Of a DNA stretch of 5,512 nucleotides, positions 1-5,512 are shown one piece after another. The DNA lies in IMG/VR virus record IMGVR_UViG_2706794670_000011. The stretch is one strand, 5' to 3'. Position 1 is the stretch's first letter; the number at the start of each line of letters is the position of its first letter. The notes below the pieces were generated by a model. The model was not told where the DNA came from and searched no databases. It worked only from the letters and a program-made list of their open reading frames with translations. The DNA is from a virus. Lineage: Duplodnaviria; Heunggongvirae; Uroviricota; Caudoviricetes. A program made the position numbers and the translations under genes.

Positions 1-6
1 CTTTAG

Positions 7-384
7 AGTAACGTTGGGTTTTTCTGCTCATTATTAGCTCCTTCTGATGCCATTCTATTTCAGGAAGGAGTGTCCGTTAAACTCAGGCTACCTCAATTTG
101 CGCTGGGAAGTGGTGCGCAAGTTGCGTCTAGTGGCGATATTTATGGTTCAGTGTGGGAAAACAACTGGTTAAGCACATGGCTGCATAATCATGTCGTTCG
201 GGATATTCGTCTTGGCAGCATTGAATATAAAAACGTATGGCGCGACTACGGCTTTGGCGATGCGTCAGGTTATGTTTTAACAGCCGCAATTAACAGCAAT
301 GCGGATGATATTGTCGACACTGTTGCCAGAAGGCCAATTCAGAAATTGATTGGGGGAATATGGTACAACGTGGGGAGTGTTTAA
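7..384 (+). CDS. Tail fibre protein, C-terminal segment (stf-like); 5' part lies upstream of the window or is truncated
   Basis: Open frame from 7 to TAA at 382-384, directly followed by a tfa gene (TAAGATG junction). Its last ~60 aa align with the C-terminal end encoded on the minus strand at 1478-1660 (VRDIRLGS...[17 protein letters not shown] vs VRDVRLGT...[17 protein letters not shown]). An in-frame TAG sits at 4-6. Confidence 0.6.
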
Positions 385-385
385 G

Positions 386-913
386 ATGATGCACCTGAAA
401 AATATTAAGGCCGGGAATCCGAAAACACCGGAACAATACCAGCTAACTAAAAAAGCGGGCGTGGTATGGCTCTTTTGCGAAGATGGCAAAAACTGGTATG
501 AGGAACAAAAGAATTTTCAGCCAGACACCATAAAAATTGCTTACGATGAGAACAACATCATCGTTGCTGTCAGTAAAGACGTTTCAACTATTAATCCTGA
601 AGGGCTAAGCATAGTTGAAGTTCCTGATATTACGGCAAATCGTCACGCAGACAATAACGGAAAATGGATGTTTCTGGATGGTAAAGTAGTAAAGAGGGAA
701 TATACAGAACAGGAACTGCAACAACAGGCCGAATCACAAAAGGCCGCATTGCTTTCCGAAGCTGAATCAGTCATCCAGCCGCTGGAACGAGCTGTCAGGC
801 TGAATATGGCAACAGACGAGGAACGCACACGACTGGAAGCATGGGAACGCTACAGTGTTCTGGTCAGCCGTGTGGATACGGCAAATCCTGAATGGCCACA
901 AAAGCCTGAATAA
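386..913 (+). CDS. Tail fibre assembly protein (Tfa family chaperone)
   Basis: ATG at 386 ([14 protein letters not shown]...) one base after the stf stop, with GGGGAG 8 nt upstream. N-terminus and length match the Tfa family and are homologous to the convergent copy at 942-1475 ([14 protein letters not shown]...). C-terminus ([22 protein letters not shown]) is homologous to the tfa remnants at 2698-2781 and 3597-3830. The ORF track begins at 350, but 386 is the more likely start. Confidence 0.85.
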
Positions 914-918
914 AAATT

Positions 919-938
919 AAGGCCCGATAGCGGGCCTT
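919..938. terminator. Hairpin between convergent tfa genes, likely bidirectional intrinsic terminator
   Basis: AAGGCCCG-ATAG-CGGGCCTT: perfect 8-bp GC-rich stem with 4-nt loop in the 28-bp gap between the two tfa stop codons. An A/T run (TAAAAATT) flanks it on one side. Confidence 0.5.
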
Positions 939-941
939 CTC

Positions 942-1475
942 TCATTCTGGTTGTTCGGGAAACGTTACTGGCAGGCTGGAGGTGTCTGTGGATTCAACCT
1001 TCTGCGCATAGAGCATCCACTCGGTTAATTTTTGTTTATTCTCATCGGAAATGATGCCCAGCTGTAGCTGAGAGTCCCACAGCTGGGTTTTATCCCTGAC
1101 GAGCTGCAGCAGGCTCTGCTTTTCATTTTCCGCTTGTTGCCTTTGCTCTTCCTCGGTATAAGTTCGCTTTATCACCGCACCATCTTTGAACATCCAGTTG
1201 CCCGAAATATCAGCCCGGCGATTTGCTGTAATATCAGGCAACTCAACGACACTTAAACCTTCTGGATTAATTGCTGATACATCCTTGTCTATAGCAATAA
1301 TTATTCCCTCAACTGTGTAAGCCAGTTTTATTGTATCCTCCTGAAAGTTTTTTAATTCCTCATGCCAATTTTTTCCATCTTCGGACCATAACCAGATAAC
1401 ATCAAAATTCTTTGTTAGCTGGTATTGTTCAACGGTTTTTGGATTACCTGCGACAATGTTTTTTAAATGCTGCAT
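942..1475 (-). CDS. Tail fibre assembly protein (Tfa family), alternative copy
   Basis: 177-aa ORF starting [37 protein letters not shown], homologous along its length to the plus-strand Tfa at 386-913. Its ATG sits 2 nt after the stop of the upstream 49-aa stf' C-terminal ORF (TAATCATG). Confidence 0.85.
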
Positions 1476-1477
1476 GA

Positions 1478-1624
1478 TTATACCTGCGATACGTTATACC
1501 ATGTTCCGTTAATTAACTTTTGTATTGGTCTGAATACTGCCGGATCATCACCATCGACTTCACCGATAATACCAAGCCCCGTGATTACATGGCCTGATTT
1601 TTCATACATCACGCCTTTCTTCAT
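1478..1624 (-). CDS. 49-aa ORF encoding the conserved C-terminal end of the alternative tail fibre, detached from stf' by an in-frame amber codon
   Basis: Minus-strand [51 protein letters not shown]. It is in the same frame as the stf' ORF, separated only by TAG (1628-1630) plus one codon. It is homologous to the last ~45 aa of the plus-strand stf. Confidence 0.5.
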
Positions 1625-1627
1625 GGT

Positions 1628-2392
1628 CTAAACAACTCGTGTGCCAAGTCTGACATCTCTCACATAGCGGGAATCAAAGTTACCGTAATCCGAGGGATTA
1701 ACACGTCCCGTAATATTTATGGTTTTATTACTTTGAATGCTTCCGGAGACAAAGCGCATAACATGGACGTTATTAGCATAAACATCCAGATTACCATCGC
1801 CTTTTTGTTTAAAGCCCGTGTCATTATCACCCAATACAATCGAATTACCGCCAAGAGCACTGGATGTTCCGATACCCAGTGCACCATTCAGTTGACCACC
1901 AGANNNNNNNNNNNNNNNNNNNNNNNNNNNNNNNNNNNNNNNNNNNNNNNNNNNNNNNNNNNNNNNNNNNNNNNNNNNNNNNNNNNNNNNNNNNNNNNNN
2001 NNNNNNNNNNNNNNNNNNNNNNNNNNNNNNNNNNNNNNNNNNNNNNNNNNNNNNNNNNNNNNNNNNNNNNNNNNNNNNNNNNNNNNNNNNNNNNNNNNNN
2101 NNNNNNNNNNNNNNNNNNNNNNNNNNNNNNNNNNNNNNNNNNNNNNGGTGCTTCCTGTTTTCCCTAAGGCAAACGCACCAACATGACTTGCTTTTAATGT
2201 GATATCGGAGGAACCATCAAAAGCCACATTGCTTATTTTCCTGGCAGTTTTTAATTTTGCAGCTGTAGAAGCATTGCCGGATAGTTCACCAGAAAGGCCA
2301 CCGCTGAATGTTTGTCGATTAGTCCAGGTATTCGCTGTACTGAGTAACGGTATTTTCTCCCCGCTTGTGCCGAGTTCTCGTAAACCGAGGTT
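1628..2392 (-). CDS. Alternative tail fibre variable C-terminal segment (stf'); ends at in-frame TAG; middle part masked by Ns
   Basis: Minus frame is open from the crossover-like site (~2392) to TAG at 1628-1630. Translation (...ANTWTNRQTFSGGLSGELSGNASTAAKLKTARKISNVAFDGSSDITLKASHVGAFALGKTGST[81 masked]SGGQLNGALGIGTSSALGGNSIVLGDNDTGFKQKGDGNLDVYANNVHVMRFVSGS...) is typical of phage side tail fibre distal domains. The GTG at 2227 that the ORF track uses as start is probably internal. Confidence 0.65.
   Translation of the reverse strand, partial: NLGLRELGTSGEKIPLLSTANTWTNRQTFSGGLSGELSGNASTAAKLKTARKISNVAFDGSSDITLKASHVGAFALGKTGSTXXXXXXXXXXXXXXXXXXXXXXXXXXXXXXXXXXXXXXXXXXXXXXXXXXXXXXXXXXXXXXXXXXXXXXXXXXXXXXXXXSGGQLNGALGIGTSSALGGNSIVLGDNDTGFKQKGDGNLDVYANNVHVMRFVSGSIQSNKTINITGRVNPSDYGNFDSRYVRDVRLGTRVV
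1904..2146. other. Masked or unknown sequence (run of 243 N) inside stf'
   Basis: Continuous N run seen directly; content cannot be evaluated. Confidence 1.
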
Positions 2393-2400
2393 TTAGATAA
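2375..2400. promoter_or_regulatory. Candidate 26-bp crossover site for a Hin/Gin/Pin-family DNA invertase (hix/gix/pix-like)
   Basis: TTCTCGTAAACC-GA-GGTTTTAGATAA: two 12-bp imperfect inverted half-sites around a 2-bp core, located where the stf' frame opens and ~55 bp upstream of the invertase gene, the canonical position. The match to known crossover sites is from memory. Confidence 0.6.
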
Positions 2401-2454
2401 TGGCGGTTTCTGGCCTGCATGGCATGATTTGTGCTTTTGGACGGGAGATTCAGC

Positions 2455-2697
2455 GTGCTGATTGGCTATGTAAGGGTATCAACAAATGACCAGAATACAG
2501 ACCTGCAACGAAACGCTCTTGTTTGTGCAGGATATGAACAAATATTTGAAGATAAATTAAGCGGAACAAGGACAGGCCGACCTGGATTAAAACGTGCTTT
2601 AAAGCGCCTTCAAAAAGGTGACGCACTGGTTGTCTGAAAACTGGACTGACTGGGGCACTGTATGCGGCATCTTGTCGTGCTGGTGGTGGAAGCCTAG
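2455..2697 (+). pseudogene. pin: Serine DNA invertase (Pin/Hin/Gin family), disrupted: N-terminal ~80 codons with three in-frame stops, fused to a tfa 3' fragment
   Basis: GTG start at 2455 with GGAG 7 nt upstream. Translation MLIGYVRVSTNDQNTDLQRNALVCAGYEQIFEDKLSGTRTGRPGLKRALKRLQKGDALVV*KLD*LGHCMRHLVVLVVEA* carries the serine-recombinase N-terminal catalytic motif (YVRVST) and the family WKLDRLGR motif with W and R replaced by TGA (2635-2637, 2647-2649). The C-terminal two-thirds, including the HTH domain, is absent. Confidence 0.8.
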
Positions 2698-2781
2698 AAA
2701 AAGTATCGGGTGTTGCTGAACCGTGTTGATACATCAACTGCACCTGATATTGAGTGGCCTACGAACCCTGTCAGGGAGTAA
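2698..2781 (+). pseudogene. Tail fibre assembly protein 3' fragment (last ~28 codons), fused in frame behind the pin remnant
   Basis: [27 protein letters not shown] is nearly identical to the C-terminus of the tfa remnant at 3597-3830 and homologous to the C-terminus of Tfa at 386-913. The Trp codon of the conserved EAW motif is TAG here (2695-2697). Confidence 0.6.
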
Positions 2782-2830
2782 TCATTGGGATTATGCCGCA
2801 GCACGTCTTAAGCAAGAACGTGCTGCGGTT
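2698..2830 (+). repeat. Direct repeat copy 1 (tfa 3' end plus downstream hairpin)
   Basis: Manual alignment of 2704-2830 against 3753-3880 gives 9 mismatches and one 1-bp indel over ~127 bp. It contains the hairpin CCGCAGCACGT-(11 nt)-ACGTGCTGCGG at 2796-2828, followed by a T-run at 2839-2844. Confidence 0.85.
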
Positions 2831-2835
2831 GGATG

Positions 2836-3504
2836 CTATTTTTTCCCTGAAGCGGAAAACATTACTACAGTACCTTGAACCCTGGTTTTAACATTCTCGA
2901 AATGCTCTGAGAGTATATGTGTTAAGCCTTCTTCGGAATCTTTTGTGTTTGAAAAGATGCCTTTCTGATTGTAAATGCGCATCAGTTTTTGACCGAAGCT
3001 ATTGTGCACAACTCCATCGCCAAGAATTGTGGCTCCGTATAGAGTTCCATCGTCAGTTAAGGCCTGCGCCGCATTGCGTATTACACAGCTTTTTGTAGAT
3101 ATATTTCCAGGCAGGCAGTGAAGAAGGTAAAACATGGAAATGGAATCAAATTGACCATGTAACGCCGCGGGATAAGGTTCAAAAACATCATGGCTAATTT
3201 TATGTTTAATTTTTGATTCCCCAGCCCTTGTAGATGCCGCGTTCAGGCTAGCTTCGTTCAAATCCATTAAAGATATCAGACTACTCTCAGGTACGTGAGT
3301 AAGGTAAAACCCAGTTCCAACACCAATATCCAGATGGTTGTTACCTAAATGTTCCAGAAAGTGTGGAAGAAGGTGTTCCTTTGTAGGACATCCCCATGCA
3401 AGCCGATTTGATACTCCCAAAACCCACCAGTCATAAAGCTTTAGGGTAAGTGGTGTGTAAATTTTAGCCCCATCATCTGTGTTTGTTTTCATTGATTTCA
3501 CCAT
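2836..3504 (-). CDS. Class I SAM-dependent methyltransferase (Rossmann fold), substrate unknown; probable prophage cargo (moron) gene
   Basis: 222-aa ORF (218 aa from the second ATG at 3492, which has GGTGA 5 nt upstream). Motif I LDIGVGTGFY (GxGxG SAM-binding loop), an acidic residue at the end of the next strand (LISLMDLNE), a later FDSISMFYLLHCLP segment and ALTDDGTLY. No DPPY/NPPY or PC-ENV motifs, so it is not an obvious DNA methyltransferase. Confidence 0.75.
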   Translation of the reverse strand: MVKSMKTNTDDGAKIYTPLTLKLYDWWVLGVSNRLAWGCPTKEHLLPHFLEHLGNNHLDIGVGTGFYLTHVPESSLISLMDLNEASLNAASTRAGESKIKHKISHDVFEPYPAALHGQFDSISMFYLLHCLPGNISTKSCVIRNAAQALTDDGTLYGATILGDGVVHNSFGQKLMRIYNQKGIFSNTKDSEEGLTHILSEHFENVKTRVQGTVVMFSASGKK

Positions 3505-3533
3505 GTTATAGTTTTATTTGTGAATTAAATCAA
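3505..3533 (-). promoter_or_regulatory. Candidate sigma70 promoter for the methyltransferase gene
   Basis: On the minus strand, TTGATT - 17 bp - TATAAC lies immediately upstream of the first ATG, in an AT-rich gap. It is speculative, and the spacing to the preferred second start is tight. Confidence 0.25.
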
Positions 3534-3596
3534 TTATGGCGATGAATTACAAGGGGTTAAATGCTGCCGCAGCATAGCGATATTGAAATAGCCTAG

Positions 3597-3830
3597 TATG
3601 CTTCGATACAGCAGGAGCCGAATGGCTGGAAGACCGTCACCACACAGTTCTACATCCAGGAATTTAGTGAGTATATTGCGCCACTGCAGGATGCTGTAGA
3701 TCTGGAAATCGCAACGGAGGAAGAAAGATCGTTGCTGGAGGCATGGAATAAATATCGGGTATTGTTGAATCGTGTTGATACATCAACTGCACCTGATATT
3801 GAGTGGCCTGCAAATCCTGTCAGGGAGTAA
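3597..3830 (+). pseudogene. Tail fibre assembly protein C-terminal remnant (~77 codons, no start codon)
   Basis: Frame open from 3597 (stop at 3594-3596) to TAA at 3828-3830. Translation ...[57 protein letters not shown] is homologous to the C-terminal third of Tfa at 386-913. There is no ATG and no N-terminal Tfa domain. Confidence 0.7.
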
Positions 3831-3880
3831 TCATTGGGATTATGCCGCAGACACGTCGTATGCAGGAACGTGCTGCGGTT
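3747..3880 (+). repeat. Direct repeat copy 2 (tfa 3' end plus downstream hairpin)
   Basis: Partner of 2698-2830. Hairpin at 3845-3878 (CCGCAGACACGT...ACGTGCTGCGG) has a 1-nt bulge relative to copy 1. Confidence 0.85.
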
Positions 3881-3944
3881 AGTTTGTGAGCTTTCGATAG
3901 TGGTTGTTATTTTTGCCCTTATTTGTTCCGGAGGCCATGGTTCA

Positions 3945-4115
3945 ATGGTCCGTCTGCCCCCTGTGGTGATGTCAGCAAAATCAGCCACTGCGCGAACCAC
4001 AATAGCCCGGGAAGATGCTGAAGATCACCAGGTAAAGCTGTCAGCGCAGAAACTGGAAGAACTGCTCGCATCAATGGTTAAGGATGAGGTTGATCGCAAT
4101 GATGGGATTTATTGA
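3945..4115 (+). CDS. Hypothetical small protein (56 aa), doubtful
   Basis: ATG at 3945 with GGAGG 10 nt upstream; MVRLPPVVMSAKSATARTTIAREDAEDHQVKLSAQKLEELLASMVKDEVDRNDGIY*. No family recognised. The frame continues open for 29 codons after the TGA at 4113-4115. Confidence 0.2.
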   Translation: MVRLPPVVMSAKSATARTTIAREDAEDHQVKLSAQKLEELLASMVKDEVDRNDGIY

Positions 4116-4209
4116 CGTCAGCGAGAGCAGAAGGAAGAACTGAATAACCTGAATGATTTACGCTCAATCAGAGCGATGGCGATTAGCGGCAATCACGCTC
4201 GATAAAATT

Positions 4210-4234
4210 AACCTCGGTGATCATCCGGGGTTTT
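4210..4234. terminator. Hairpin between convergent genes, possible bidirectional terminator
   Basis: AACCTCGG-TGATCAT-CCGGGGTT (8-bp stem, one mismatch) followed by TTTT on the plus strand and preceded by an A/T run, a few nt from the rha stop at 4241-4243. Confidence 0.4.
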
Positions 4235-4240
4235 GCATTC

Positions 4241-4833
4241 ATTAAAACCGCATCAACCTTTCCACCAATTGTTCTTTACGGGCAACGATCCACCCATGTT
4301 GCTCCAGATAAAATTTAAACCGTTCCAGAGTGCATACCATCGCATCGGCGGGGACTTTTTCTGTGAACTCGACCTGANNNNNNNNNNNNNNNNNNNNNNN
4401 NNNNNNNNNNNNNNNNNNNNNNNNNNNNNNNNNNNNNNNNNNNNNNNNNNNNNNNNNNNNNNNNNNNNNNNNNNNNNNNNNNNNNNNNNNNNNNNNNNNN
4501 NNNNNNNNNNNNNNNNNNNNNNNNNNNNNNNNNNNNNNNNNNNNNNNNNNNNNNNNNNNNNNNNNNNNNNNNNNNNNNNNNNNNNNNNNNNNNNNNNNNN
4601 NNNNNNNNNNNNNNNNNNNNNNNNNNNNNNNNNNNNNNNNNNNNNNNNNNNNNNNNNNNCCGAAAAGTTGGCTGATGTAAATTCGGGAGAGCAGTCGAGT
4701 GTGTCAATCTTAGCTAAAACGTGTTTATGTTGTTTATCGAAGTAGTCGGCAACAGCTTGAGAGGTGGTAACCAGGCGACCATCTTTGAAAAAGACTTTTG
4801 GTGACTCGTTAGAAAAAGTTATAGCTGTATTCA
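4241..4833 (-). CDS. Phage regulatory protein, Rha family (N-terminal Rha domain visible; centre masked; C-terminal part in a different frame)
   Basis: ATG at 4833 (minus) with GGAG 9 nt upstream. N-terminus MNTAITFSNESPKVFFKDGRLVTTSQAVADYFDKQHKHVLAKIDTL matches the Rha-domain pattern (...TTS..VA..F.K.H..VL..I..L). After the N-run the only protein-like minus frame is ...QVEFTEKVPADAMVCTLERFKFYLEQHGWIVARKEQLVERLMRF*, ending at 4241-4243. Confidence 0.6.
4378..4659. other. Masked or unknown sequence (run of 282 N) inside the rha locus
   Basis: Continuous N run seen directly. Confidence 1.
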
Positions 4834-5409
4834 TATGTGATGACTCCAATTAATTGGATGATCACCACCTCTGACGCCAATCAGGGAGGTGGTGAGACGT
4901 ACAGGGTTGGCGTAACCGGTCATCACAAAACCCGGCGCGGATTTCTCCGCCCCTGCACGCCCCACCATAATGCGAATGTGGCAATGCTTAACGCAAAAAA
5001 AACCGCAAACGCGGCTATGCGTTGTGATGTTATCCGAGACGCCAATCCCGACAACCGATTTTGCGGTTGTGTGAGGAATATAGCCCCGGAGAACAAAAAC
5101 TGTCAACGGGCAAAAAAATTTCCGTTATCAGGAATGTATAAAATTAAAGCGATCGAGCAAAAAATCCTTTCTGCAAAACTAAAAAAGATTTCAATAAAAT
5201 CAGGCAGTTAAAAACACGGAAAACGGTATAAAAAAGCGCCTCAAAATCCTGTTTTTTCTTTCAGATACAATGTCTTATTGCATTTTTTAAAACATGTCAG
5301 TGTGGTACATGGATATCGATACCATCGCCAATTATAAACTGGGCGGTGCACAGCAACATGATAGCGTACGCCTCGATCCGTGGGTGTTTATGTTCTCAGC
5401 AGGATATCG

Positions 5410-5512
5410 GGTAATGACTCCAACTTATTGATAGTGTTTTATGTTCAGATAATGCCCGATGACTTTGTCATGCAGCTCCACCGATTTTGAGAACGACAGC
5501 GACTTCCGTCCC
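5410..5512 (-). mobile_element. IS1 insertion sequence, right end (partial; continues beyond the window)
   Basis: GGTAATGACTCCAACTTATTGATAGTGTTTTATGTTCAGATAATGCCCGATGACTTTGTCATGCAGCTCC... matches, from memory, the reverse complement of the IS1 right terminus, including the ~23-bp terminal inverted repeat at 5410-5432. Confidence 0.9.
5425..5512 (-). CDS. insB: IS1 transposase InsB, C-terminal end (partial)
   Basis: Minus-strand translation ...GRKSLSFSKSVELHDKVIGHYLNIKHYQ* with stop at 5425-5427, the characteristic InsB C-terminus. Confidence 0.85.
   Translation of the reverse strand, partial: GRKSLSFSKSVELHDKVIGHYLNIKHYQ

Follow-up and report, generated by a model that had tools for sequence, protein, structure and literature searches.

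A ybcY methyltransferase gene between direct repeats of a tail fibre assembly gene end: a probable moron of lambdoid prophages in Escherichia coli

Lambdoid phages carry morons, the term of Hendrix, Juhala and colleagues for an extra transcription unit that lies between conserved phage genes. The modular theory of phage evolution of Susskind and Botstein reportedly includes linker sequences, and boundary sequences are said to have been described in phage HK620 by Clark et al. in 2001. Here, we analysed a 5,512-nucleotide (nt) stretch of viral DNA (IMG/VR record IMGVR_UViG_2706794670_000011, class Caudoviricetes; the whole stretch is hereafter called the window) in which ybcY, a gene for a methyltransferase, lies between two direct repeats, each holding the 3' end of a tail fibre assembly gene (tfa) and a hairpin.

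In earlier experiments, lambda was found to gain DNA of the Rac and Qin prophages by Red-beta/RecA-dependent exchange in diverged stf/tfa homology, and the tfa-ea47 spacer of lambda was found to accept an inserted gene (De Paepe et al. 2014; PMC3945230). An arrangement like that of the window is present in prophage DLP12 of E. coli K-12 (tfaD-ybcY-tfaX-appY-ompT), where a tfa 3' end with its hairpin is followed by ybcY on the opposite strand, by the same spacer with divergent promoters and by a chimeric second tfa fragment (tfaX) that also begins at Tfa residue 137. In the literature on ybcY, tfaX/tfaD and 'exchangeable effector loci' we found no description of the repeat structure itself. We read the locus, with a probability of about 0.75, as a moron at the end of the tail-fibre block, in which the repeats would be two tfa ends and the unit would have been moved and lost by homologous recombination. 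The features on which this reading is built, including an open reading frame (ORF) for an S-adenosylmethionine (SAM)-dependent enzyme, are as follows.

2431..2691, + strand: pin', a pseudogene of the N-terminal part of a Pin/Gin-type serine invertase (Pfam Resolvase PF00239, E 4.6e-15, residues 11-68).
2684..2830, + strand: left direct-repeat copy (local alignment).
2688..2781, + strand: left tfa 3' remnant, Tfa residues ~164-194 plus TAA (tblastn with the Tfa of phage PhiR26_1, residues 163-194, and alignment to intact tfa).
2796..2828: left hairpin, with an 11-bp perfect stem CCGCAGCACGT / ACGTGCTGCGG and an 11-nt loop (folding).
2836..3504, - strand: ybcY, an intact ORF of 222 codons for a class I SAM-dependent methyltransferase (Pfam, PHROG and AlphaFold2 (AF2) model).
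3505..3560, - strand: predicted ybcY promoter region, with -10 TATAAC at 3510..3505, -35 TTGATT at 3533..3528 and a 17-nt spacer.
3561..3830, + strand: tfa', a chimeric relic ORF (tfaX-like; PHROG and Pfam).
3733..3880, + strand: right direct-repeat copy (repeat search and local alignment).
3845..3878: right hairpin, with stem CCGCAGACACGT / ACGTGCTGCGG and one bulged A, then a U-rich tract on the + strand (folding).
3879..3905, + strand: remnant (~25 nt) of a ~65-nt conserved post-hairpin sequence (right-flank alignment across classes).

The repeat observation is confirmed. A repeat search paired 2684-2801 with 3733-3850 and 2802-2830 with 3852-3880 at 90% identity, and the joined local alignment of 2684-2830 with 3733-3880 has 132 identical columns out of 148 and one 1-nt indel, the repeat period being 1049-1050 bp. 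The alignment scores 214, whereas 200 composition-preserving shuffles averaged 21.9 and reached 31 at most. Each copy contains the end of the tfa reading frame, a TAA stop (2779-2781; 3828-3830) and then the hairpin. A preliminary description of the locus had placed the copies at 2704-2830 and 3753-3880 with 9 mismatches and one indel, and the same count was obtained by eye on our alignment; stop codons and folding also bear out its statement that each copy is a tfa 3' end plus hairpin, and the repeat does end 5 nt from the methyltransferase stop (the repeat at 2830, the ORF at 2836). It went too far in holding that the interval contains only the methyltransferase gene and its upstream region, as the chimeric ORF from 3561 also lies inside these ~900 bp, and the upstream region that it called AT-rich is only modestly so (36-43% GC vs 46-51% in the flanks).

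The left copy is truly derived from tfa only from ~2688, since 2684-2687 belong to the fused pin pseudogene, and the right tfa fragment reaches beyond the repeat, leftward to ~3654 (Tfa residue 137). Where the left tfa is full, the repeat is ~220 nt long; the left copy here measures 147 nt, a length that is set by the pin'-tfa fusion and not by the cassette. Comparison with intact pin and intact tfa puts the in-frame joint between pin codon ~85 and tfa codon ~164, on a GGAA microhomology (~2688-2691), and TAG at 2695-2697 stands in place of a tfa TGG codon. The pseudogene has in-frame stops TGA at 2635-2637 and TGA at 2647-2649, and in strain JJ1887 the NCBI Prokaryotic Genome Annotation Pipeline (PGAP) names it 'recombinase family protein, incomplete'.

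The locus was compared with about 250 others, drawn from annotated genomes and phages, from IMG/VR (80 loci found via the protein) and from searches with DNA patterns; many of these are duplicates of the same contigs and the genome sampling is clonal. Individual loci are cited by number where required (L004 and so on). Throughout this set, the hairpin, ybcY, the promoter and the proximal part of tfa' stay together and the flanks vary widely. The same arrangement is found in the functional phages PhiR26_1, 2G7b, PhiR68_2 and Turner. On the left, most phage-like loci have a full-length tfa and others a tfa truncated at residue 8, 18, 50, 119, 147, 156 or 163, and there are three contexts without tfa, namely the ynaE/ynaM spacer of Rac-like phages, an ipaH effector gene and a yciE/yciF/manganese catalase (katN) operon, in which homology with the window starts exactly at the hairpin stem. 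On the right, there are at least five continuations (DUF4376'/rha as in the window, hydrolase-ompT, appY-ompT, a dinI-like gene and a further tfa allele whose hairpin differs), which part from one another at various points inside the 3' part of tfa'; IS1 insertions and one deletion occur as well. Other cargo is found at the same boundaries: ea47 in lambda, the ipaH effector gene, a katN/yciEF-like operon, hydrolase-ompT and appY-ompT. A patch of the right copy, TGCAAATCC, is found inside otherwise left-type left copies, including those of two loci in the pin' context (L133 and L049), where the patched left remnant is 143 nt long.

The most informative relatives are prophages at the yecD-aspS site. 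An empty form, stf-tfa-hairpin-dinI, is present for example in O104:H4 (all 30 best matches are complete genomes at ≥99% identity), and a filled form, stf-tfa-hairpin-ybcY-tfa'-hairpin-dinI, in at least 11 genomes; both share the same host flank and the same accession of the DinI-like protein. The two align at 96-98% on either side, and their difference in length, 1049 bp, is exactly one repeat period. The junction of the empty site falls within the 20-nt GAACGTGCTGCGGTTGGATG, identical in both copies. Up to and including the hairpin and TTGGATG, the single copy of the empty form is the same as the filled form's left copy, and it then passes into the right flank of the filled form; the left copy of locus L261 differs from it only at a 3-nt patch. 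An indel of this kind, one period long, is what homologous recombination would be expected to leave on gaining or losing the unit. The hairpin is also present, and ybcY absent, in lambda, Rac and Qin. The check proposed in the preliminary description, a search of relatives for empty sites or other cargo, thus yielded both, in the form of the empty yecD site and the alternative cargo at the same boundaries. Tandem amplification, the reciprocal product of unequal crossing-over, was not seen, as no compared locus has two copies of ybcY.

The inner boundary of the unit differs in kind from the outer ones. The first ~30 codons of tfa' are unrelated to Tfa (phrog_3893, E 3e-7), and from ~3654 the ORF corresponds to Tfa residues 137-194. 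Pfam Caudo_TAP matches 3654-3827 at profile positions 77-130 of 131 (E 4e-25) and the C-terminus matches tail fibre assembly PHROGs, the whole ORF being a family of its own (PHROG 2341, E 4e-61, full length). The ORF is intact at 89 amino acids (aa) in the majority of loci compared; it is 11 aa long in the window type, where it is broken by TAG at 3594-3596, and 61 aa in the K-12 type. Neither tfa fragment has a full-length Caudo_TAP domain, both being relics, and the intact tfa genes of the window lie elsewhere. In all loci having tfa', it begins at Tfa residue 137, the joint being at about 3647-3654, and this constancy suggests a single non-homologous join; 3647-3654 would thus be a true mosaic joint, made once. 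In phage Ayreon (L088 2849-3200), tfa and the hairpin are followed by the last 36 nt of ybcY, an internal deletion and the ybcY upstream region, which is kept to about 3647 (~90% identity) and is then followed by unrelated DNA in place of tfa'. We infer that tfa-hairpin-ybcY once existed as an older arrangement lacking the second repeat.

The same tfa fragments match the Rfam family RF02111 (IS009), at 110.8 bits for 3584-3787 and 46.4 bits for 2659-2738, the gathering score of 117 not being reached. Full scores are given by lambda tfa (217.7 bits, L004 2924-3122) and K-12 tfaR (220.9 bits, L164 1497-1695). Because the match is the coding 3' part of tfa, we consider that this family is probably a conserved gene fragment and not a small RNA.

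The promoter evidence for ybcY comes from its K-12 ortholog. Genomic SELEX (systematic evolution of ligands by exponential enrichment) of the K-12 ybcY-tfaX spacer identified divergent constitutive sigma-70 promoters, bound by RpoD holoenzyme, and an H-NS site, the promoters being TTGATT-17-TATAAC for ybcY and ATGGCA-15-TTAAAT for tfaX (PMC3946193). The window has the same hexamers TTGATT-17-TATAAC at 3533..3505 and the K-12 spacer is near-identical; a consensus scan gave an alternative candidate, TTAACC-16-CATAAT, at 3560..3533. Transcription of ybcY leftward from a sigma-70 promoter of its own is therefore predicted, and the promoter region is the part of the unit with the lowest GC (36.5%).

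At the other end of the gene, the left hairpin folds at -28.5 kcal/mol (z -4.8) on the + strand and at -25.4 kcal/mol (z -4.7) on the - strand, which is that of ybcY, and is a probable bidirectional terminator. It is kept beside the ybcY 3' end in all left contexts, including the three without tfa, and in these a U-run follows it on the ybcY strand, like that of an ordinary intrinsic terminator; in the window context this U-run is missing, and the hairpin is here called a putative terminator. The right hairpin folds at -24.1 kcal/mol (z -2.4), has a terminator-like scan match at 3861-3877 plus GTTAGTTTGT, and is of a variant also found in the lambda b region. A search of Rfam with the hairpin gave a weak CssrB match (32.6 bits vs 76) and nothing at gathering level.

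A course of events that may have produced the locus can be outlined. It would have begun with one ancient non-homologous join, by which the ybcY upstream region was fused to codon 137 of the tfa of another phage, the product being tfa-hairpin-ybcY-tfa'-hairpin. One repeat would then be the resident tfa end (here ~31 codons after the later pin'-tfa fusion) and the other a relic tfa', the equivalent of K-12 tfaX, each tfa end carrying the hairpin that normally follows tfa. The passenger, ybcY, would be transcribed leftward as its own unit from its own sigma-70 promoter towards a strong hairpin. From then on, the unit would have stayed intact as its flanks were exchanged many times, with breakpoints in the 3' part of tfa' and inside the hairpin. 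RecA- or phage Red-type recombination, acting on the homology of the tfa 3' end and hairpin plus the wider flanks, would move the unit between prophages, and the same recombination could convert patches between the copies and delete or re-insert the unit. The hairpin would have two roles, termination and the supply of a short, portable stretch of homology where modules meet. Of the earlier proposal, a cassette exchanged by homologous recombination between tfa 3' ends, exchange and loss are in keeping with these data; the origin appears to be non-homologous.

Several observations weigh against this course of events. No recombination event was directly observed, the evidence being comparative throughout, and the sampling is clonal, with strains of sequence type 131 (ST131) prominent among the matches listed. 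When a simulated product of deletion from repeat to repeat (2400-2830 joined to 3881-4370) was compared with 5426 complete E. coli genomes, no single-piece match stood above the two-piece filled structures among the best 40 matches. The suggestion that the repeats allow the gene to be lost finds support in the one-period indel at yecD and none in the window's own context. The losses of ybcY or tfa' that could be resolved in other lineages (Ayreon, L125, L055, L094/L103 and L117) are illegitimate deletions or insertion sequence (IS) events, with endpoints unrelated to the repeats. The empty yecD state could equally be ancestral, and the direction, gain or loss, is not inferable from the sequences. 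As the empty copy is left-type at every diagnostic position of the hairpin and the 5' patch, a pop-out would require crossing-over within the final 20 nt of the ~220-nt repeat. Finally, exchange between related prophages needs only outer flanking homology and not the repeats.

An exact 33-mer of the window's right flank was searched in IMG/VR. Of the 110 loci sharing this flank, 106 have ybcY; of the other four, L125 shows an illegitimate deletion, L094/L103 have a junction of transposase-like character and L117 has an IS1 insertion, and none is a clean empty site. To judge from these sequences, the unit appears fixed in the lineage of the window.

Such findings could be accommodated by a history in which the tfa ends are inert leftovers of one illegitimate join and the repeats never recombine together, later variation having arisen from illegitimate deletions and from allelic replacement across the long flanks outside (stf/tfa to the one side, dinI/att to the other). 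We regard this history as rather unlikely. It would account for an inner junction fixed at Tfa residue 137, for the lack of an empty site in the ST131-type context, for losses that are illegitimate wherever they could be resolved, for the left-type hairpin and 5' patch of the empty-site copy and for two copies that are still 89% identical and not homogenised. It does not sit well with an isogenic indel of exactly one period whose junction lies in shared sequence, or with right-copy patches inside left copies, among them the 143-nt left remnant of the pin' context. In addition, three hairpin variants, each tracking the left flank, are found with ybcY, and there is a loop chimera, which argues that crossovers lie inside the short shared element and were not confined to the long flanks.

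These variants bring out the role of the hairpin, as distinct from the tfa 3' end, which the preliminary description had taken as the joint; it is the hairpin that recurs, including in the three left contexts without any tfa 3' end. In lambda, tfa is followed by the same hairpin of ~34 nt, with A:T in place of a C:G pair (both arms changed, a compensatory change), and a second lambda copy lies in the b region between ea47 and ea31 (L004 ~4770; lambda ~24162). The hairpin also ends the ynaE/ynaM spacer of K-12 Rac and Qin-type prophages, ybcY being absent there, and is found beside ipaH and dinI-like genes. In IMG/VR, at least 67 distinct contexts (60 nt, hairpin, 60 nt) fall into 18 left-flank and 7 right-flank classes among the matches listed. 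Four of the right classes share ~65 nt of further conserved sequence to the right of the hairpin, of which ~25 nt are left in the window; its consensus, found in many prophages (L166 3474-3600, L173, L180), is ..TGGCTGGTGAACTTyCGATAGTGCGAGTATTGAATGATTTCCAGCyGTTAyyGATTTTAC, and a search of Rfam with the ~100-nt hairpin plus conserved element gave no match. Hairpin variants track the left flank, the ynaM-spacer class keeping ACACGCCTTA.. with four right partners, ybcY included. At least three types of hairpin are found with ybcY itself, and one variant has a chimeric loop. These combinations, together with the loop chimera, point to crossovers inside the shared element or its 3' stem, which on the sequences compared would fit short-homology recombination.

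The hairpin, often with the ~65 nt, might further be a maintained portable docking element for swapped leftward cargo, or the ~100-nt element might encode a conserved 3'-end RNA. Both ideas draw on the 18 x 7 flank classes, the internal crossovers, the compensatory change in lambda and the second lambda copy, and we consider them distinctly doubtful. If the former were true, cargo would be stacked and swapped at the docking element, including ybcY, ipaH, dinI-like genes, ea genes and stress operons.

A dedicated cassette system, with the hairpin as an attC-like (or similar) site for a site-specific recombinase, is very improbable. A hairpin of ~34 nt that bounds so many modules (at least 18 left by 7 right flank classes, among the matches listed), several junctions at or within it and a serine recombinase pseudogene adjoining the unit would be expected of such a system; however, no recombinase consistently co-occurs with the hairpin (lambda b region, Rac end, yecD-site prophage), and Pin-type invertases use gix-type sites, one of which lies separately at ~2373-2398. 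The cargo has a predicted promoter of its own (K-12 evidence), a U-run follows the hairpin in most non-tfa contexts as in an ordinary intrinsic terminator, and the crossover points vary within and beyond the hairpin, fitting general homologous recombination. An assembly artefact, in which a collapsed or mis-joined repeat mimics a duplication and which might be suspected from two masked N runs in the window, is refuted by the identical structure in ~411 complete genomes, K-12 and sequenced phages, the N runs lying outside 2684-3880.

Three known types of mobile or switching element were also considered and rejected. An integron-type cassette does not agree with cargo that has a predicted promoter of its own, with the lack of an integrase beside the unit in the window and in annotated relatives or with variable junction positions. 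A transposon, IS or miniature inverted-repeat transposable element (MITE) is not indicated, as the repeats are direct, ~147 nt long and gene ends, with no bracketing inverted repeat and no transposase ORF between them. A Gin/Cin/Pin invertible segment does not include the ybcY unit, which lies outside it and is bounded by direct repeats, and pin is a pseudogene.

The protein encoded by ybcY was examined by profile and structure searches. Pfam Methyltransf_12 matches at 37.6 bits (cut-off 30; E 3.9e-9), and Methyltransf_23, _25 and _11 also exceed their cut-offs; PHROG 2132, of unassigned function, matches at E 9e-156. The glycine-rich SAM motif LDIGVGTG is invariant in 26 homologs, and an AF2 model on these homologs has a predicted local distance difference test score (pLDDT) of 91 and an alternating beta/alpha fold. 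The nearest structures in the Protein Data Bank (PDB) by Foldseek, at template modelling (TM) scores of about 0.6 and 13-21% identity, are a bacterial phosphatidylethanolamine N-methyltransferase, the juvenile-hormone acid methyltransferase JHAMT, NodS, a phosphoethanolamine methyltransferase and natural-product methyltransferases. On this model, YbcY belongs to the class I SAM methyltransferases and its fold is of the small-molecule type. A DNA methyltransferase, whether of a restriction-modification system or an anti-restriction methylase, was rejected, as no DNA-methylase family of Pfam or NCBIfam matches and the nearest folds are small-molecule and lipid methyltransferases. NCBIfam gave sub-threshold matches only, PADLOC merely a 14.6-bit match of no meaning, and a PDB sequence search matches at E~1e-3 only; the source names of homologs are generic, and the fold search narrows the class to small-molecule/lipid methyltransferases and names no substrate. 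The annotated start, ATG 3504..3502, abuts the -10 hexamer. Since the 218-aa homologs and the PHROG profile begin at residue 5 (ATG 3492..3490), the real start is probably that ATG, giving 218 aa, and the usual 222-aa annotation would be four residues too long.

At ≥95% identity, ybcY is present in 3836 of the 5426 complete E. coli genomes (about 70%), in up to four places per genome and at ≥98% identity in every full-length match sampled; in genome CH4797 only the first 36 nt matched. It is found in 14 phage records, in which the name 'YbcY' is used. Protein identity of ≥98% is confined to Escherichia and Shigella, bar fragments in three metagenome bins labelled otherwise, and stand-alone 218-aa homologs with 56-90% identity occur across Enterobacterales under generic names. 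Among the copies examined, Enterobacter homologs (60-64% identity) have chromosomal neighbourhoods that vary and include neither tfa nor the hairpin, and these pointed to no donor locus for ybcY. The GC content of ybcY is 41-43% and that of the promoter part 36.5%, a modest difference from the 46-51% of the flanks.

Some details of the cargo in related loci were also recorded. In Shigella/enteroinvasive E. coli (EIEC)-type loci (L067 6985-8628 in record orientation, L079, L065 and others; L150/L152/L153), an IpaH-family type III effector gene (LRR and NEL, E 9e-77) lies beyond the hairpin, downstream of ybcY, with a DUF4376 chaperone gene and a tail-fibre gene on one side and dinI and a host LytS-type kinase gene on the other. 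In L075 (6154-8112 in record orientation), two DUF892 (YciE/YciF-like) genes and a manganese catalase gene lie between a tfa 3' fragment and hairpin-ybcY. L068 and L075 (~10927-11300 in the orientation of the window) have a third, divergent tfa homolog (70% amino-acid identity over residues 32-194) ~1.1 kb past ompT, so that hydrolase-ompT is itself bracketed by tfa-derived sequence.

The window as a whole is the tail-fibre end of a degraded e14/lambda-like prophage and matches an IMG/VR contig (L008) at 100% identity. Its part 2400-4370 is 99.4% identical to ST131 E. coli genomes such as JJ1887, where the counterpart prophage adjoins ompW'/trpA, and the structure of its own context (pin'-tfa3'-ybcY-tfa'-DUF4376'-rha) occurs in ~411 complete genomes, with ST131 strains prominent among the matches listed. 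The neighbouring features are as follows.

Leftmost part of the window: tail-fibre C-terminus.
386-913 (+ strand) and 942-1475 (- strand): two convergent intact tfa genes.
Left part of the window, - strand: alternative fibre end.
Left of the ybcY unit: invertible tail-fibre segment, its right limit being a gix-like site at ~2373-2398.
3927..4205, + strand: 3' fragment of a tail-fibre-chaperone-like gene of the DUF4376 type (annotated by PGAP in JJ1887, whose locus is 99.4% identical).
4885-4972, - strand: C4 antisense RNA RF01695 (75.9 bits, above the gathering score).
4996-5070, - strand: isrK RF01394 (72.2 bits, above the gathering score).

The tail-fibre C-terminus, the convergent tfa pair and the alternative fibre end together make up the invertible segment. 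Window 1644-2406 is oriented opposite to ST131 JJ1887, and the forward and reverse alignments to JJ1887 overlap at 2380-2406, which contains a gix/pix-like site, TTCTCGTAAACCGAGGTTTTAGATAA. As the dead pin' fused to tfa is common to the window and JJ1887, inversion would depend on an invertase acting in trans. The two also differ in segment content, since the JJ1887 flank lacks a strong match to window 1-1643. On the right, the DUF4376 fragment is the third relic in the zone (PGAP: 'DUF4376 domain-containing protein, internal stop, missing N-terminus'); a Pfam scan of 3927-4112 gave no match and the assignment rests on the PGAP annotation only. It is followed by a Rha/ash module, with the rha ORF at ~4253-4849, partly masked, and the C4 and isrK RNAs lie upstream of the ash/rha genes, as in the P1/Gifsy-like antirepressor control module. 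The masked N runs, 1904-2146 and 4378-4659, break the alternative tail-fibre gene and rha. The window ends (5409-5512) in what we take to be IS1 terminal sequence; these 104 nt are found at two further places in locus L009, and IS1 lies inside or beside the right hairpin in L009 and L117.

The repeat is thus real, yet it illustrates in an ordinary way how cargo enters and leaves lambda-like phages, with no new mechanism. ybcY is among the most widespread passenger genes of E. coli prophages, and the locus is a clean natural example, with a fixed unit, variable flanks, an isogenic presence/absence pair and a short hairpin joint. It supports homology-driven mosaicism at the lambdoid tail-fibre end, a zone that also carries virulence cargo (ipaH, ompT). 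By-products of the analysis are that IS009 is apparently a tfa fragment, that ybcY probably has a start annotated four codons early and that its protein is not a DNA methylase.

Compared with described systems, the arrangement belongs to a known kind, being read as a moron that lies beyond the 3' end of the tail-fibre genes, in the cargo zone, and is subject to relaxed homologous recombination. Like morons, the unit has a putative terminator hairpin (by folding, 5 nt past the ybcY stop), a lower GC content that departs modestly from that of the flanks, and a presence or absence that varies among relatives, at the same place in the yecD-site prophages; a promoter of its own is predicted from that of K-12. 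Unlike classical morons, for which non-homologous insertion is stressed, it is bracketed by direct repeats of 150-220 nt and is gained or lost by one period. The hairpin resembles linker or boundary sequences in being short, conserved and non-coding where the flanking modules change, and differs from them in being also a plausible terminator, often with ~65 nt conserved to its right. The exchange in stf/tfa homology was experimental and used marked prophages, and ybcY, the tfa'-hairpin repeats and the hairpin joint are not described there (PMC3945230). In K-12 DLP12, unlike the window, ybcY is a pseudogene, tfaD keeps residues 50-194, appY-ompT comes next and tfaX has a different 3' allele without the second hairpin; the window has an intact ybcY, only ~31 codons of the left tfa and a premature TAG in tfa', and a DUF4376 fragment and rha come next.

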